Of a stretch of DNA of 64,000 nucleotides, positions 3,999 to 41,529 are shown piece after piece. Under the pieces are notes generated by a model. The model was not told where the DNA came from. It saw nothing but the letters and a program-made list of their open reading frames with translations, and did not search any database. The translations under genes and the position numbers were made by a program. Numbering within the stretch: position 1 is the stretch's first letter; each line of letters opens with the position of its first letter. The stretch comes from a virus (Duplodnaviria > Heunggongvirae > Uroviricota > Caudoviricetes), in IMG/VR virus record IMGVR_UViG_3300029743_000281; one strand, given 5' to 3'.

Positions 3999-4256
3999 TC
4001 CCCCGTTCCCGCATTGTATAACCCTTAGAGTTCTTCAGTTTTATTATACATCTGCACTGGCGAGTTGACTGTCAAGCAGTAGACGACACGTTTTTCTAAA
4101 TGTCAACTACTGCTTGACATTTGATAGAAAATATTCTCTAAGGATGCAACACCGTAAGGGGAGGAAGGTTGCATCCTTACCGCATTAATTTGCTATGTGT
4201 TTTGTTCGGCGCAATAATTGTCTTGTTCTTATGCGGGCCCGTTTGGAGGTAAAGCC
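3999..4256. promoter_or_regulatory. Divergent control region with paired operator-like inverted repeats and a structured leader upstream of the XRE gene
   Basis: Perfect 13-bp inverted repeat TGTCAAGCAGTAG ... CTACTGCTTGACA ~25 bp apart, each overlapping a TTGAC(A/T) -35-like box. A 9-bp-stem hairpin GGATGCAAC-N17-GTTGCATCC lies in the leader. RBS GGAGGTAAAGCC before ATG 4257. Confidence 0.5.
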
Positions 4257-35772: not shown

Positions 35773-36624
35773 TTATTTCATGCACTCCAGCTGTTTCATC
35801 AGGACGTTATAGGAGTAATCCCCTTCCTCCGTCTTACCGTCCATGTCAAGGACAGGACCGGCCTCCGCAGGGGGATCACTGGGCGGCTCCGTTTGAGCCG
35901 CAGGGGTATCAGGCTTGACTCCCAGACGATTCAGGACGATTAGATCCATCTGACGACTGGAGAAAAGGTGCCCTGCCGCATCCTGCTGGAACGGCTTCTT
36001 TTCTTCGCCCTCGCCCGGTTCCTCATCGGGAGTCTCCTCCAGCTTATCGGGGTCCGCCGGGTCACTGTCAGGTTCATCCTCTTTCTTTGAGAAAAGGATC
36101 TCATCCGCAAAGCCCAGCTCCACTGCTTTCTTGGCATTCATCCACGTTTCGTTGGACATGAGGTTTGCAATGCGGGCATGGGTCAGACCGCTTTTGGCTG
36201 CATAAGCGTTGATGATGCTTTCCTTGACCTCATTCAGCACCTCGATGGCTTTCTCCATATCCTTGGTGTTCCCCATCGCAACGGTACTGGGGTCGTGGAT
36301 CATCAGCATAGCAACCGGGCTCATCTGGACGGTATCTCCGGCCATGGCAACAACGGATGCCGCAGATGCAGCAATCGCATCGATCTTGACCGTGATGCTG
36401 CCCTTGTAGTCCTTGAGCATGGTATAGATTTCGGCAGCAGCAAACACATTGCCGCCCGGACTGTTGATCCAGACGGTCACATCACCCTCACCGGCATTTA
36501 GCTCATCCCGGAACATCTGCGGTGTAATTTCATCACCCCAGAAAGATTCCTCGTCGATGGGACCTTCCAGCCGGAGGGTTCTGGTCTCGTCACTGTCCTT
36601 GATCCAGTTCCAGAACTTTTTCAT
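35773..36624 (-). CDS. Prohead protease (ClpP/S14-like)
   Basis: 'VWINSPGGNVFAAAEIYTML...ASAASVVAMAGD' ClpP-like Ser/His region. Confidence 0.8.
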   Translation of the reverse strand: MKKFWNWIKDSDETRTLRLEGPIDEESFWGDEITPQMFRDELNAGEGDVTVWINSPGGNVFAAAEIYTMLKDYKGSITVKIDAIAASAASVVAMAGDTVQMSPVAMLMIHDPSTVAMGNTKDMEKAIEVLNEVKESIINAYAAKSGLTHARIANLMSNETWMNAKKAVELGFADEILFSKKEDEPDSDPADPDKLEETPDEEPGEGEEKKPFQQDAAGHLFSSRQMDLIVLNRLGVKPDTPAAQTEPPSDPPAEAGPVLDMDGKTEEGDYSYNVLMKQLECMK

Positions 36625-38021
36625 ATTGCTCTCCTTTCTTTCTGTCGTTTTGGCGTACTCTCACTCTGCCGGTTTTCGCTGTCAGGGGTTTCTTCCTCCG
36701 GCTGTGTCTGCTGAGGCTGATTCTGCTGGGCCGCGGCAGCCTTGTTCTGCTGCGCCAGTCCAGCATCCTTCAGCTTCACATAGCCACCGTTGAGGTAGTA
36801 GTCATCACCGCCCTGGTCAGCCGGGATCAGATCCATGTTTTCCAGACGATGGATATCGTTGGGAGACAGAAAACCATTGCTGATGCCGGTGGCATAGCCG
36901 TTCATCCGGCTCTGGTAGTCGCCGCGCAGCAGACCGTCCACATTGAACTTCGGAAAGTAGGTATCCTGCTCTTCCTCCAGCAGCAGATCCTTGATGATGC
37001 TCTGCTCAATGCGGACGAGCCACGGAGTCAGGGAATGCATCACGAAGTTCAGCGACTGGTATTCGATGTTGGAGAAGGTCGCATGGGACAGATCCGCTAC
37101 CAGATGCGGAGGCACACGGAAAATGCGACATATCTCCGTGACGGAGAACTGCTTGGATTCAAGGAACTGACTGTCTTCCGGCGGCAGCGATACAGGCTTG
37201 TAGGTCATGCCTTCTTCGAGAACCGCCACACGATGGGCGTTGGCTGCGCCACCGTATGCCGCTTCCCAGTTATCCCGGACACGATTCGGGTCCTTGATGA
37301 CCCCGGGATGTTCCAGCACACCGCTGGGCTGAGCGCCGTTCTTGAAGAACGCCGAGCCGTACTTATCCACCGCAATGGAGGTGCCAAGGCTGTTTTTCAT
37401 CATGGCAATCGGTGAGAAACCGATCAGGCCATTGAAGCCCAACCCCGGCACATGGAATATCTCATCCCGGCGAAAGTAGATATCCTTGTTCTGCTCTCCC
37501 GGAACTTCATCCGTATAGGCGTGGTAGATGTAGTACAGTTCTCCGCTTTCATCGCGATCCACTTCGACGTTTTCCGGCAGCAGCGGATACAGACCCAGTA
37601 CCGTGTTCTTTCCATCCCGGACGATCTGTGCGTAGGCATTGCCCCAGAGGAGCAGATGGGTCATCAGGGTCTCCCAGAAGACGAAAGCCGTCATCTCCGG
37701 GTTCGGCTGCCGATACAGGATTTTGTACAGCGGATGATCCCGTGCCTTTTCCTTGTTGCCGTTGTCATCCGTCACCCGATACAGATGCAGCGGCAGGGCC
37801 GCAATGGACTCTGCCAGCAGTCGAACACAGGCATACACGGTCGGGATCTGCATGGCGGCTTTTTCGTCCACCTGCTCTCCTGCATTGGAACGACCAAACA
37901 CAAAGGTCTGCCCGGAATCGCGGACATTGTCCGTGACCTCTGGCAGACCTTGTTTGGGTGGTGATTCTGTTTTGGGGGAGTCCCTTGGGTTTTCAAAACC
38001 TAGCCATTCCCAGAATGTCAT
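36621..38021 (-). CDS. Portal protein (HK97 family)
   Basis: 466 aa between TerL and the protease. Confidence 0.8.
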   Translation of the reverse strand: MTFWEWLGFENPRDSPKTESPPKQGLPEVTDNVRDSGQTFVFGRSNAGEQVDEKAAMQIPTVYACVRLLAESIAALPLHLYRVTDDNGNKEKARDHPLYKILYRQPNPEMTAFVFWETLMTHLLLWGNAYAQIVRDGKNTVLGLYPLLPENVEVDRDESGELYYIYHAYTDEVPGEQNKDIYFRRDEIFHVPGLGFNGLIGFSPIAMMKNSLGTSIAVDKYGSAFFKNGAQPSGVLEHPGVIKDPNRVRDNWEAAYGGAANAHRVAVLEEGMTYKPVSLPPEDSQFLESKQFSVTEICRIFRVPPHLVADLSHATFSNIEYQSLNFVMHSLTPWLVRIEQSIIKDLLLEEEQDTYFPKFNVDGLLRGDYQSRMNGYATGISNGFLSPNDIHRLENMDLIPADQGGDDYYLNGGYVKLKDAGLAQQNKAAAAQQNQPQQTQPEEETPDSENRQSESTPKRQKERRAI

Positions 38022-38049
38022 TTTTCAGCAAATCCTTTCATTTTTTCTT

Positions 38050-38109
38050 TCCTTGTGTTCCAACAAGTGGTATAATATAGTCTATACTGTTGCTTACGGA
38101 GGTTTTTCC
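38050..38109 (+). promoter_or_regulatory. Promoter for abi (extended -10 TGgTATAAT)
   Basis: cttgtgttccaacaagTGgTATAATatag, then RBS GGAGG. Confidence 0.5.
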
Positions 38110-39081
38110 ATGCTGACGATAAATCAGTTGATGCGATATCTGCGTTCCAAACATCATATTACTGTCAAAAGCAATCAGTCCCAGTCATTGCGCAACATGG
38201 GCTACTATCATGGTTTTAAAGGCTATCGGTTTATCCGAACCCCGAACCAAAGGATTGCTTTTTCTTCGTTTGATGAAGTCTCTGCTTTAAACAATTTCGA
38301 TATGAAGTTGAAAGCGTTGTTTTACCCTAAGGTCATGTTTATCGAAACTGCATTAAAGAGCTATGTGATTGAAGCCACACTTAAGGATTCTCATTCTGAG
38401 AACATCGACACAATCTTCGGTAAATCAATCACAAACTACCGTTCCTTCACTCCAGGTAGCAGAAACTATCATCAGGAATACGCAAAACGTATGTCGCTTC
38501 GTAGCAAAATCAATAGTGCTTTGCTTCGTGATTATGGAAACAAAAAGCAAACCGTCAATCATTTTTTTGACACTGACCGGTCCATACCTATTTGGGCGGC
38601 TTTTGAATCCCTGGCACTAGGTGAATTCGGAACTTTCTTTGCGTGTGCAAACGCGAATGTCAAAAAGAGTACTTCTGCAATACTTCACCTGCCCAGTCAA
38701 CTTGACGCTGATGGAAGAATTACAGAGTTCATTATTTATTCAATCAAAGACCTCCGTAATGCTGTTGCTCACAACAACACTATTTTCGACACGCGGTTCC
38801 AAACTGGTGAGATCAATCAGCGTCTTGTTGCACTTTTAGAAACCGAAATAGGCATTTCAAATCTGGATTTCAAATATATTTATTCATACGTCATACTCCT
38901 AACCTACGTTCTCAGAAAAATGGGTGAAACCAAAACATCCTGCAAGCAATTTTTGAATGCGTATATTGCCTTGACCGATGAATTGCGCACACAACTCCCG
39001 GCAAATGTCTGCAATCAAATTCTAGGCACTCAGCAACGTCCACATCTGCGCCAGCTGCAAAATTTCATTTCCAATTCGTAA
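38110..39081 (+). CDS. Abortive-infection protein, Abi_2 (AbiD/AbiF-like) family
   Basis: Low-GC, plus-strand gene inserted between portal and terminase. Layout 'FDMKLKALFYPKVMFIETALKS...NAVAHNNTIFD' typical of Abi_2. Confidence 0.75.
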   Translation: MLTINQLMRYLRSKHHITVKSNQSQSLRNMGYYHGFKGYRFIRTPNQRIAFSSFDEVSALNNFDMKLKALFYPKVMFIETALKSYVIEATLKDSHSENIDTIFGKSITNYRSFTPGSRNYHQEYAKRMSLRSKINSALLRDYGNKKQTVNHFFDTDRSIPIWAAFESLALGEFGTFFACANANVKKSTSAILHLPSQLDADGRITEFIIYSIKDLRNAVAHNNTIFDTRFQTGEINQRLVALLETEIGISNLDFKYIYSYVILLTYVLRKMGETKTSCKQFLNAYIALTDELRTQLPANVCNQILGTQQRPHLRQLQNFISNS

Positions 39082-39099
39082 GATTCTCTTGCATAATTT

Positions 39100-39186
39100 C
39101 TTTTCTTGTGGTATAGTATAGCTATGAATTGCGGTGGTCGTCTTCGGACAACACCTTGAAAGAGCCTGATGCGTCGGGCTCTTTTT
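39100..39186 (+). ncRNA. Candidate short transcript (sRNA or micro-ORF MNCGGRLRTTP): promoter, ~60 nt, terminator
   Basis: TTGCAT-17-TATAGT at 39096-39124. Terminator AGAGCC-N9-GGCTCT then TTTTTCTTTTTG at ~39150-39186. Confidence 0.3.
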
Positions 39187-39197
39187 CTTTTTGTCTT

Positions 39198-39404
39198 TTA
39201 TTCTTTCTCCAGCTCCGGCAGACCGGCCAGGCTGGTGCCGAGAGATGCCACGCCAGCCACGATCGCTGCGCTGCCTACCGCCATCCAGTCCACCGTACCG
39301 CTGGGCATCTGGGTCACGACCAGAGCTGCACCGGTCTGGAACATGGTCTTTGCGGCGCGGATACTTGCTGCGCGCCACCAGTCTGCACTCATTAGATACT
39401 TCAT
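39198..39404 (-). CDS. Small membrane protein (holin-like?)
   Basis: RBS GGAGGATAAGAAT then ATG. Hydrophobic 'AALVVTQMPSG..WMAVGSAAIVAGVASLG'. Confidence 0.4.
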   Translation of the reverse strand: MKYLMSADWWRAASIRAAKTMFQTGAALVVTQMPSGTVDWMAVGSAAIVAGVASLGTSLAGLPELEKE

Positions 39405-39430
39405 ATTCTTATCCTCCATGATTTTGTATA

Positions 39431-41056
39431 TCAAAAAACGATCATGTCACGTTCATCGTAGATGCTGCCCTGCTGCTGTCCTTCATTTCGGATGCAGCGG
39501 TCCAGTGCCATGATCGCAGCGACGATACCGTCAATTTTCTCCGGCGACTTTGCCTTGGTAGGCTTAATATTGCCGGCCGGATCAGTGTCCACGACCACAT
39601 TGCCGGCCATCCATGCCATGATGGGGTTGCCGCCGTGAACGATACGTCCTTCCATCAGGAGCTTATAGAACTCCTTGGTGGGTGGACTCATATCCTTAAA
39701 CCCTTGTCCGAAAGGCACAACGGTAAAGCCCATCCCCTCTAGGTTCTGGGTCATCTGCACCGCTCCCCATCGGTCGAAGGCGATTTCCCTAATGTGGTAT
39801 GTGTTTCCAAGTTCCTCAATGATCTTCTCTATGAATCCGTAGTGGATGACATTTCCCTCGGTCGCCATCAGATACCCTTGCCGGTACCAGACATCGTATG
39901 GCACAGATGCCCTGCGCACCCGCTGCGGAATCGTATCCTCCGGAATCCAGAAGAACGGCATCATGATGTACTTTTCATCCGAGGTTCTGGGTGGGAACAT
40001 CAGCACAAAAGCCGTGATGTCACCGGTGCTGGACAAGTCCAGTCCACCGTAGCAGTCACGGCCTTTGAGAGCTTCCATATCGATTGGTTGGTTGCCGAGG
40101 TCATAGATGTGTTCCGGGATAAATCGGGTCAGTGAGGACACCCACATATTCAAACGGAGCTGCTTGAACACATTCTCCTCTGCGGGATTATCCAATGCCT
40201 CCTGAAACGCATCCCGGACACGCTGGATCTGGATGGTCTGTCCCAGTGAGGGATTGGCCTTGTACCAGTTGGCTTCATCATGCCAGTCATCTTCATCGGT
40301 CAATCCATAGACCACCGGATAGAATGTGTGGTCTATCTTGCGACCGGCAAGAAGATCAAGGGCTTTCATATGCAGCTCATAGCAGATGCTCTCCTTGTCC
40401 GTGCCGGCCGTGGTGATCAGGAAGAACAGCGGCTGTTCACGGGCATCACCGGAACCTTTGGTCAGGACATCGTAGAGCTTGCGATTGGGCTGGGCATGGA
40501 CTTCGTCCAGCACCAGACCGGACACGTTCAAGCCGTGCTTCGTGCCGACTTCCGCCGACAACACCTGATAGAACCCGGCGTTGCTGTAATTCACAATGCG
40601 TTTGGTTGCCGCCATAATCTTGCAGCGCTTCATGAGTGCCGGCGTCATCTGCACCATCTGGTTGGCAACGTCAAAGACGATGGATGCCTGCTGCCGGTCG
40701 GCGGCAGCGCCATAGACTTCTGCGGAGGGCTCGTTATCGGCAAACAGCAGATACAATGCCACCGCAGCGGCCAGCTCCGACTTGCCGTTCTTCTTTCCGA
40801 TTTCGACATAAGCTGTGCGGAACTGTCTGTTTCCGCGCTCATCCACAATACCGAAAACATCCCGGATGATCTGCTCCTGCCAAGGGAGCAGCCAGAACCG
40901 CTTGCCCGCCCACTTGCCTTTGGTGTGTCGGAGGTTTTCGATAAAGCGCACGGCGCGGTCGGCCTTGGCTTTATCGTAGTGACAGGTCGGCAGCATGAAG
41001 CGGCTGGGCTTGTAGTCTTTGAGTTTTGGGTAGTTCTTCGGTCTGCTCTCCATCAT
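39431..41056 (-). CDS. Terminase large subunit
   Basis: Terminase_1-like ATPase 'GKKNGKSELAAAVALYLL' plus a nuclease domain; 541 aa. Confidence 0.9.
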   Translation of the reverse strand: MMESRPKNYPKLKDYKPSRFMLPTCHYDKAKADRAVRFIENLRHTKGKWAGKRFWLLPWQEQIIRDVFGIVDERGNRQFRTAYVEIGKKNGKSELAAAVALYLLFADNEPSAEVYGAAADRQQASIVFDVANQMVQMTPALMKRCKIMAATKRIVNYSNAGFYQVLSAEVGTKHGLNVSGLVLDEVHAQPNRKLYDVLTKGSGDAREQPLFFLITTAGTDKESICYELHMKALDLLAGRKIDHTFYPVVYGLTDEDDWHDEANWYKANPSLGQTIQIQRVRDAFQEALDNPAEENVFKQLRLNMWVSSLTRFIPEHIYDLGNQPIDMEALKGRDCYGGLDLSSTGDITAFVLMFPPRTSDEKYIMMPFFWIPEDTIPQRVRRASVPYDVWYRQGYLMATEGNVIHYGFIEKIIEELGNTYHIREIAFDRWGAVQMTQNLEGMGFTVVPFGQGFKDMSPPTKEFYKLLMEGRIVHGGNPIMAWMAGNVVVDTDPAGNIKPTKAKSPEKIDGIVAAIMALDRCIRNEGQQQGSIYDERDMIVF

Positions 41057-41529
41057 CCGCCACCTCCCAGCAGGTTTTCCATCTCATCAGCAGCATCCGC
41101 AGGGCTGCAATCCGAGGCAATGATCCGGCTTCGGGAGGATGGGGTCAGACCGAACTGCTCGGCAAAGCGGTTCATGATTTTCAGATAGGTCTGTGCAATG
41201 GAGACCTGCGGCACCTGCTGCCAATAGCCGGAGGGCGTTTTGACGATGGTGCCGTGCTGGGTGATGAATTCTTCTGCTTCTTTCCATCGTGCGTATGCCT
41301 GACAATAGCCGGCGAAGGCAGCCATGTCCACTTCGGTCAGGATGCCGATGGCTTCCATCTGCTTGGCAAGACGCCGCCATTCTTTTTTTGCTTCCGGCTC
41401 CAGCCATTTCGGACACGCCGGTGCTTTCTTTGTGGGCTTCGGTTCGCTGGTATTCAGCGGATGCTTGCCCGGATTGCCTTCCAGTTCCTTCATGGCGGTC
41501 GGCTTCGGTTTTCTGCCTCTGGTAGCCAT
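41053..41529 (-). CDS. Terminase small subunit (P27 family)
   Basis: 'MATRGRKPKPTAMKELEGNPGKHPLN' typical P27-family N-terminus. Confidence 0.8.
   Translation of the reverse strand: MATRGRKPKPTAMKELEGNPGKHPLNTSEPKPTKKAPACPKWLEPEAKKEWRRLAKQMEAIGILTEVDMAAFAGYCQAYARWKEAEEFITQHGTIVKTPSGYWQQVPQVSIAQTYLKIMNRFAEQFGLTPSSRSRIIASDCSPADAADEMENLLGGGG

Follow-up and report, generated by a model that had tools for sequence, protein, structure and literature searches.

The question raised by this locus is what a short transcription unit does directly behind an abortive-infection gene. The locus lies in a 64,000-nucleotide (nt) stretch of DNA from a virus of the Caudoviricetes (IMG/VR record IMGVR_UViG_3300029743_000281), hereafter the window, in which abi, a gene of the Abi_2 family, is followed by a predicted promoter, a micro-open reading frame (ORF) and a terminator. 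The original prediction had named these elements and had offered either a small RNA or a regulatory peptide as the product of the downstream unit; all of the elements were recovered in place. Comparative sequence analysis indicates that the unit is a conserved structured small-RNA gene with its own predicted promoter and not a peptide gene. By analogy with the AbiF systems, the locus is probably an AbiF-like type III toxin-antitoxin or abortive-infection module with a new RNA partner. This reading starts from direct observations, namely the protein family, the fold and the HEPN motif of Abi, the boundaries of the insert, a covarying gene-linked RNA distinct from the Rfam abiF motif (RF03085), and solo copies of that RNA.

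About 43 nt separate the abi stop codon from the noncoding RNA (ncRNA), whose predicted transcription start is placed near 39124 by the position of the -10 box. The 5' leader of the RNA is the single-stranded GAAUUGC (39126-32), which together with hairpin 1 forms the most conserved core of the molecule. The same unit recurs in the homologous loci as a promoter, the GAAUUGCGG leader, a two-tier hairpin closed by CUUCGG, and a terminator hairpin with the apical GAUGCGUC. The stem of hairpin 2 covaries at 10 of its 12 pairs, and its apical GAUGCGUC hardly varies. Folding of the 74-nt stretch gives a z-score of -3.6, and RNAalifold returned the two hairpins from 29 distinct copies with 19 pairs, 15 of which show compensatory changes. 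In an explicit count on the MAFFT alignment, 94.7% of the cells were paired versus 41-57% with slid partners, and none of the 500 shuffles reached any of the measures. The model-based alignment of 47 sequences gave 97% paired cells, compensatory changes at 16 of the 19 pairs, 51-60% in the slid controls and no shuffle as good among 500, but the MAFFT figure is the fairer one because the model-based alignment leans towards its model. The covariance model of the RNA (R1) finds a single copy in the 64-kb window, at 39119-39191, with a score of 90.5 bits (E~1e-23).

Upstream of the RNA, the predicted TTGCAT-17-TATAGT promoter is present at 39089-39117. Nearly all Firmicutes loci keep the pattern cTTGCATA..N..TG(G/A)TATA(T/G)TA at a constant distance from the RNA, with a variable spacer. 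A generic promoter scan flagged neither the abi promoter nor the ncRNA promoter; the latter was missed because TTGCAT fits TTGACA at only three of six positions. The terminator, which had been called a good intrinsic one, holds as a covarying hairpin with a T-run at 39158-39185, but the number of terminator-like sites is not above that of the shuffles (1 found versus 2.0 expected). The local pattern is therefore not significant on its own, and the weight rests on conservation across the loci. Hairpin 2 would end the abi and ncRNA transcripts alike, just before the stop codon of a holin-like ORF, and the terminator scan of the region found no such site on the minus strand.

We sampled 46 genome or viral loci and 80 metagenome loci encoding Abi homologues. 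In 120 of the 124 evaluable loci the RNA lies next to abi, 12-53 nt beyond the stop codon: it is present in all 47 genome, viral and GenBank-phage loci and, at the same 12-53 nt, in 73 of the 77 evaluable metagenome loci. The small RNA of the original prediction is thus borne out as a covarying gene that is predicted to be separately promoted. The unit spans homologues of 35-51% identity from Treponema and other Spirochaetes, Anaerovorax, Sarcina, Psychrobacillus, and Clostridium, and the RNA-linked loci overall belong to Clostridia, Bacilli, and Spirochaetes, with protein identity down to ~29%. It also occurs in bins of metagenome-assembled genomes (MAGs) labelled Desulfovibrionaceae and Bacteroidaceae. 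Two abi-RNA loci from the same study, one in a Desulfovibrionaceae MAG (L019) and one in a Bacteroidaceae MAG (L020), are nearly identical, which suggests either a mobile element or mis-binning.

The plasmid homologues of Enterococcus and Streptococcus took no part in building R1, and all four of these held-out cases carry the RNA (Enterococcus gilvus, E. faecalis, and Streptococcus salivarius; 30-33% identity; 34-59 bits). Two further homologues outside the model building carry it as well: the RNA of the Streptococcus satellite Javan277 (33% identity) has hairpin 1 only, without hairpin 2, and the homologue of Streptococcus phage phi-SgaBSJ31 (29% identity) is also accompanied by the RNA. Abi_2 proteins at 21-26% identity (Javan62, Javan333, IME197, SE-1, and a Pseudomonas plasmid) gave no match to R1 or RF03085, which places the boundary of the clade near 29% identity. 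The flanks of the abi-bearing loci hold no strong stray RNA copy except in one locus (L085, 68 bits), where a copy cut at its 5' end (L085:1-61) lies ~1 kb upstream of abi and may be the end of a neighbouring tandem cassette. The portal-related loci contain 14 RNA copies, three of them without abi. A blastn search of GenBank phages with the RNA, a short query, found nothing, and diverged copies were found only via the protein. In a more distant case, the human faecal phage MT835668 (L240), an Abi_2 gene of 23% identity is flanked on both sides by a different RNA of ~70 nt, in near-identical copies at 228-301 and 1318-1391, each of which has a promoter of the TTGACA type and a terminator whose loop, CAUGCGUG, is similar to the GAUGCGUC of the window RNA. 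This locus suggests that the RNA partner can change its position from one Abi_2 clade to the next.

As had been proposed, abi belongs to a known gene family; in itself it is an ordinary representative. Its 323-residue product matches Pfam Abi_2 (PF07751) over profile positions 2-184 of 184 with E=1.9e-27 and 97.2 bits (cut-off 25.6); among the PADLOC models, AbiD fits best (E=6.8e-23). The residues R216, N217, H221, and N222 are invariant in 15 homologues of 29-100% identity, as are the motifs GYYHG.K.Y, P.WA.FE..G, and R216-N-x3-H221-N. The RNAVAH of the window protein aligns with RNQCAH of AbiFCd from Clostridioides difficile, and the PIW/E..G block aligns too. In AbiFCd, R202 and H207 are needed for toxicity (PMC12373285). 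An AlphaFold2 model of Abi, computed with database homologues, reached a predicted local distance difference test score (pLDDT) of 82.9 and a predicted template-modelling score (pTM) of 0.82. Foldseek against the PDB returned one significant, full-length match, 8vz6_A (E=9.8e-5, probability 1.00, template-modelling scores 0.57/0.61), which is the PbAbiF dimer bound to its ncRNA; the next match had E=0.09. The sole match in a phmmer search of the PDB was again 8VZ6, an 'Abi family protein' (E=0.019). Judged by its motifs and its modelled all-helical, AbiF-like fold, Abi truly belongs to the AbiD/F HEPN group, though remotely, and a homologue search at E<=1e-3 yielded 1480 protein clusters.

The abi gene has its own extended -10 box, as predicted, and TGnTATAAT stands at the same position in the relatives. 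A GGAGG or AGGAG Shine-Dalgarno sequence precedes most of the Firmicutes homologues. The 5' untranslated region (UTR) is only ~27 nt long and therefore too short for an RNA element. We also considered translational control of the AbiD1 type by sequestration of the ribosome-binding site, since 38094-38107, which contains this site, is complementary to 38746-38759 in the KDLRN codons (14 nt, 93%); it was rejected as chance because 12 of 13 homologues do not keep the complementarity. The Treponema and L019 clades have a -10-like box, TAAACT or TATACT, 6-7 nt ahead of the abi ATG and no Shine-Dalgarno sequence (L017:5975-6003, L019:5975-6003), which suggests that the abi mRNA of these clades may be leaderless.

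In the characterised AbiF/AbiFr and AbiFCd/RCd22 systems, which are of toxin-antitoxin type III, an ncRNA encoded in cis neutralises the HEPN toxin by binding it (PMC12373285; PMC12737573; PMC13064643). RCd22, which bears the Rfam abiF motif, has the further effect of attenuating abiF transcription (PMC12373285). The RNA lies upstream of the gene in these systems and in lactococcal AbiD, AbiD1, and AbiF (PMC12373285; PMC12737573; PMC13064643), the latter being described as two-component abortive-infection systems of protein and RNA (PMC13064643). The window locus resembles PbAbiF/AbiFr (Prevotellaceae, 8VZ6) and AbiFCd/RCd22 (C. difficile phi027/phiC2) in its Abi_2 HEPN protein, its Rx4H motif and its overall fold, and also in having a single cis-encoded ncRNA with a predicted sigma-A promoter and a terminator at its end, tightly linked to the gene. 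Like the AbiF systems, it is prophage cargo near lysis or packaging genes. In one Spirochaetes MAG (L016), two tandem RNAs follow abi at 4084-4155 and 4156-4239 (52 and 27.6 bits), which recalls the two abiF motifs of RCd22. [quoted passage not shown] No lactococcal plasmid was among the tblastn matches at E<=1e-3, so this relationship is remote.

The logic of an RNA antitoxin that neutralises an endoribonuclease in abortive infection would also be that of ToxIN/AbiQ, CptIN, and TenpIN, by analogy. In ToxIN, CptIN, and TenpIN, the antitoxins are tandem repeat arrays located upstream of the toxin, which processes them and is not a HEPN protein. In contrast, the RNA studied here is one non-repeated copy downstream of the gene, no tandem family was found in the window, and L016 alone has two tandem copies. 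A full-text literature search returned no description of a downstream Abi_2 RNA, and the two covariance models that Zilberzwige-Tal et al. (Cell, 2025) reportedly released, 'AbiF5_iter3' and 'diverse_rna', may already cover it.

We infer transcription from the predicted promoters, RNA-protein binding, toxicity, neutralisation and phage defence, which would fit together as follows. The two-gene cassette is a horizontally acquired moron that sits head-on in the late operon of a prophage whose host belongs to the Oscillospiraceae (Lawsonibacter-like). As the homology to AbiF suggests, the RNA is most likely a type III antitoxin that attaches to the Abi dimer and blocks the HEPN active site. It would be supplied in excess from its own predicted constitutive extended -10 promoter, and would also be made as the 3' end of the abi mRNA through the common terminator, so that every toxin transcript would carry its antidote while extra RNA is made constitutively. 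A superinfecting phage may disturb the supply of the RNA or displace it, thereby freeing the RNase. The free enzyme would then cleave cellular or phage RNA, leading to aborted infection or growth arrest, with the outcome that the lysogen population is protected and the prophage stabilised.

Several observations weigh against this module reading. The identity of Abi to the characterised AbiFs is only 18-19% (19% to AbiFCd of C. difficile). No match to RF03085 was obtained at E<=10 in 37800-39500 or 39060-39210, nor in the homologous loci; in phage phiC2, an identical search does detect RF03085, upstream of abiF, with 37.6 bits. Rfam as a whole returned only noise for the region at E<=10, for the whole window at gathering thresholds, and for the homologous loci. 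A known RNA family was accordingly rejected, with the phiC2 control working. Conversely, R1 gives no match in phiC2. The RNA family is therefore different from the abiF motif, and the RNA stands in another position, 3' of the gene, with a promoter of its own. The RNA lies downstream of abi and not in its 5' UTR, so attenuation of toxin transcription in the manner of RCd22 cannot apply. By analogy, the RNA may still work like that of AbiF/AbiFr, but it departs from that family in RNA motif and position. In four of the 124 loci, no intact RNA is adjacent: it is absent in two (L068, L128), broken after GAAUUGC in one (L109), and displaced in L121. The last exception arises because a transposase was inserted between abi and RNA: a 454-residue transposase-like ORF lies between the abi stop codon and the RNA, and the abi gene is 5'-truncated beside a tyrosine-recombinase/integrase ORF (L121:2271-5542). 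Finally, in lactococcal AbiF, the RNA-containing upstream region is reported to be required for the antiphage effect (PMC13064643).

This last requirement fits a role in which the RNA is a positive cofactor, a sensor or a guide-like partner needed for Abi activity, comparable to the CRISPR RNA (crRNA) of Cas13e and Cas13, or in which it has both roles. We consider this unlikely, though it keeps some weight: AbiF is a proposed ancestor of Cas13, the crRNA of Cas13e both inhibits and guides (PMC12737573), and the needs of the helices do not account for the conservation of the invariant, single-stranded 5' GAAUUGCGG leader and of the apical GAUGCGUC. However, the RNA has no variable spacer-like segment, its non-helical parts are conserved and not hypervariable, and inhibition of the toxin would account more readily for the solo copies in phages. 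It is more improbable still that the element is merely the 3' UTR of abi with its terminator, serving mRNA stability or insulation from the late genes without a function in trans. A classical intrinsic terminator in common with abi and a position always just after the stop codon would suit such an element, but the loci keep a promoter in the stretch from the stop codon to the RNA, conservation and covariation extend to the leader and hairpin 1, which a terminator does not need, the RNA with its promoter persists where abi has been deleted or replaced, and L016 has a tandem second copy.

That the unit expresses the 11-residue MNCGGRLRTTP as a regulatory peptide is scarcely credible. An ATG-to-TGA ORF is present in the window and its closest relatives, but ATG occurs in only 20 of 47 copies and is replaced elsewhere by AAG, ACG, AUU, GUG, GAG, and others, the position of the stop codon and the length vary, a Shine-Dalgarno sequence is lacking, transcription is predicted to start at the ATG itself, and the substitutions are compensatory in the stems and not synonymous, preserving base pairs rather than codons. 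On these grounds the micro-peptide was rejected and the peptide option of the original prediction falls. Very improbable, too, is the notion that a mobile cassette, on inserting, left the two similar promoter regions behind as its terminal direct repeats. The abi and downstream promoters do share sequence, as had been noticed, namely CTT(T/G)CAT..TTTCTTT(C/T)CTTGTG and GTGGTATA(A/G)TATAG (repeat families D2 and D11), in stretches of 23 nt at 83% and 14 nt at 93%, 1.04-1.05 kb apart. But the insert ends defined by empty sites, ~38022 and ~39197, lie outside both copies, the second copy is internal to the cassette, upstream of the RNA, the two regions have in common only the TGnTATAaT extended -10 consensus in diverged homologues, and no recombinase gene is found among the ORFs of the cassette. 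The shared sequence is, as the comparison of loci indicates, a promoter consensus and does not mark flanking repeats of a cassette.

The RNA was also found without its gene. A pattern search of IMG/VR for the hairpin-1 core gave 31 contigs, parts of which were examined; abi lies directly upstream in 19 of them, and 12 show no abi in the stretch examined, although they may carry one farther away. The solo copies keep the leader and hairpin 1, score 42-91 bits and stand in at least seven contexts. Three of them (L160:3374-3446, L161:3374-3446, and L204:1292-1364) occupy the same site as the window cassette, beside portals of at least 92% identity. Their inserts of 135-145 nt have the left junction of the full cassette, the promoter TTGAAC-17-TGgTATTAT and the RNA with its terminator; owing to this common junction they look like abi-deletion derivatives that retain the RNA. 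In L231 (1723-2579), from a related phage, the gap between portal and TerL holds genes for a MazE-like antitoxin (97 residues) and a PIN toxin (133 residues) in place of abi, and after them come the final ~20 nt of abi and the ncRNA with its promoter, so by sequence the cargo appears to have been swapped and the RNA unit retained. Elsewhere, the RNA follows a 3' remnant of abi (L219:27-99), stands directly after an amidase endolysin gene without a promoter (L211:2588-2659), stands ahead of a small ORF and a PIN-PhoH gene in an AT-rich phage group (L212:1448-1520, L218:12363-12435, L221:11048-11120, L223:6919-6991, and L227:5374-5444), or lies between a GIY-YIG endonuclease gene and an integrase-like gene (L213:10464-10536); L226:32-103 is a further context.

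The solo copies could be decay products of toxin-antitoxin modules in which loss of the toxin is tolerated but loss of the antitoxin is not, they could be anti-addiction elements, or they could be phage-borne antitoxin mimics that defeat Abi, by analogy with pseudo-ToxI or RNA anti-CRISPRs (Racrs). The RNA structure is intact in unrelated phage backbones, and retained function is therefore favoured. The pseudo-ToxI of phage PhiTE (Blower 2012) is said to be an antitoxin-like RNA carried alone by a phage, which would parallel the solo copies. Racrs are likewise solitary viral copies of an RNA that partners an RNA-binding immune effector, but unlike the putative mimics here, they act against Cas proteins (PMC10651486). 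It is a tentative but reasonable possibility that the RNA represents a second, uncatalogued partner lineage of AbiF-like HEPN toxins, 3' and autonomously transcribed, which phages carry alone, with or without its promoter, as a mimic that disarms AbiD/F abortive infection.

The coordinates of the module and its neighbours are collected in Table 1. The GC content is 39-42% over 38050-39100 versus 52-61% in the flanks, in agreement with the low-GC gene of the original prediction. The cassette of ~1.18 kb is oriented opposite to the phage late operon; since the neighbouring genes are all on the minus strand, abi stands head-on within the late packaging operon. The location between portal and terminase is right for the portal, which adjoins the cassette, but on the other side the neighbour is a 78-residue holin-like ORF that comes after TerL, not the terminase itself.

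Table 1. Positions of the abi-ncRNA cassette, its elements and the adjoining late genes in the window
Feature	Position	Strand	Basis
Low-GC cassette (moron): abi promoter, abi, ncRNA promoter, ncRNA, terminator	38022..39197		filled/empty-site comparison, GC
abi extended -10 TGgTATAAT, weak -35	38068..38076	+	read from sequence; predicted promoter
abi Shine-Dalgarno GGAGG, 7 nt before ATG	38098..38102	+	read from sequence
abi, 323-residue Abi_2/AbiD-F HEPN protein, putative RNase toxin	38110..39081	+	Pfam, PADLOC, fold
Codons of HEPN motif R216-N-A-V-A-H221 (Rx4H)	38755..38772	+	homologue alignment
ncRNA promoter: -35 TTGCAT (39089-94), 17 nt, extended -10 TGgTATAGT (39109-17)	39089..39117	+	conservation; predicted
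Structured ncRNA, ~68 nt, candidate type III antitoxin	~39124..39191	+	covariance model R1, covariation
Micro-ORF MNCGGRLRTTP, judged not a gene	39124..39159	+	start codon not conserved
Hairpin 1: GGUG / internal loop / GUC-UUCG-GAC / AA / CACC	39133..39155	+	all 7 pairs covary or kept
Hairpin 2, intrinsic terminator: 12-bp stem (39158-39185) and U-tract	39158..39197	+	terminator scan, covariation
Portal gene, adjoins cassette on left	36621..38021	-	Pfam Phage_portal E=2e-122
Holin-like membrane ORF, 78 residues, adjoins cassette on right	39198..39434	-	Phage_r1t_holin E=8.9e-5, below gathering score
TerL, terminase large subunit	39431..41056	-	Pfam TerL_nuclease 2e-50, TerL_ATPase 2e-26
TerS, terminase small subunit	41053..41529	-	Pfam Terminase_4 2e-31

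The ends of the insert were defined by comparing filled and empty sites in 80 viral contigs with a portal at least 91% identical to that of the window, 77 of which include the upstream junction. The site is empty in 63 of the 77, with the stop codon of the holin-like ORF 12-15 nt from the portal ATG. Eleven contigs have an insert of 1177-1191 nt with abi, in two abi variants that are about 100/91% and about 76% identical, and the remaining three have the short abi-less insert described above. With its own promoter and terminator, its atypical GC content, its position between conserved late genes and its absence from close relatives, the cassette is a phage moron, and abi is indeed prophage-carried cargo as proposed. 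The sole terminator-like site of the region is on the plus strand, so transcription of the cassette should end before running antisense into the holin-like and TerL genes; transcription of the late operon presumably reads through the cassette. In the empty-site phages, the AGGAGGA ribosome-binding site of the portal gene lies inside the 3' end of the holin-like ORF, and in the window this site has been replaced by the insertion. The window has here a 7-codon mini-ORF, MKGFAEK (38022-38045, minus strand), with its own AAGGA site and an ATGA end overlapping the portal start; it was dropped as a candidate, being present in the window-type junction (L001, L034) and not in the variants L160 and L006.

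Some further observations concern the surroundings. The holin-like ORF is conserved between TerL and portal throughout the phage group, which is an unusual position for a holin. A near-perfect 24-nt inverted repeat with a 1-nt gap (37903-37951) lies inside the 5' part of the portal gene and gave weak, chance-level mir-584 matches in Rfam. No near-identical cultured phage was found, the best match being 74% identical in TerL only.

The AbiD/F (Abi_2) proteins, which are the proposed ancestors of Cas13, rank with the most abundant single-protein defence genes; to our knowledge, their RNA dependence was demonstrated only in 2025, for loci with an upstream abiF motif. What is new here is a widespread RNA partner, absent from Rfam, in a 3' autonomous layout unlike that of the characterised AbiF systems. 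A large clade of more than 1,400 protein clusters, which reaches from gut Clostridia to enterococcal and streptococcal plasmids, phage satellites, and Treponema, keeps this different RNA in a different place. Abi_2 genes that are annotated as single genes may generally be two-component systems, and if so, cloning the abi ORF alone would give toxic or misleading results. The covariance model R1, the stems of hairpin 1, the GAAUUGCGG leader, the GAUGCGUC loop, and the solo-RNA phages make an RNA-based counter-defence against Abi testable; if the solo copies are mimics, they would be an RNA-based anti-defence analogous to pseudo-ToxI and RNA anti-CRISPRs.

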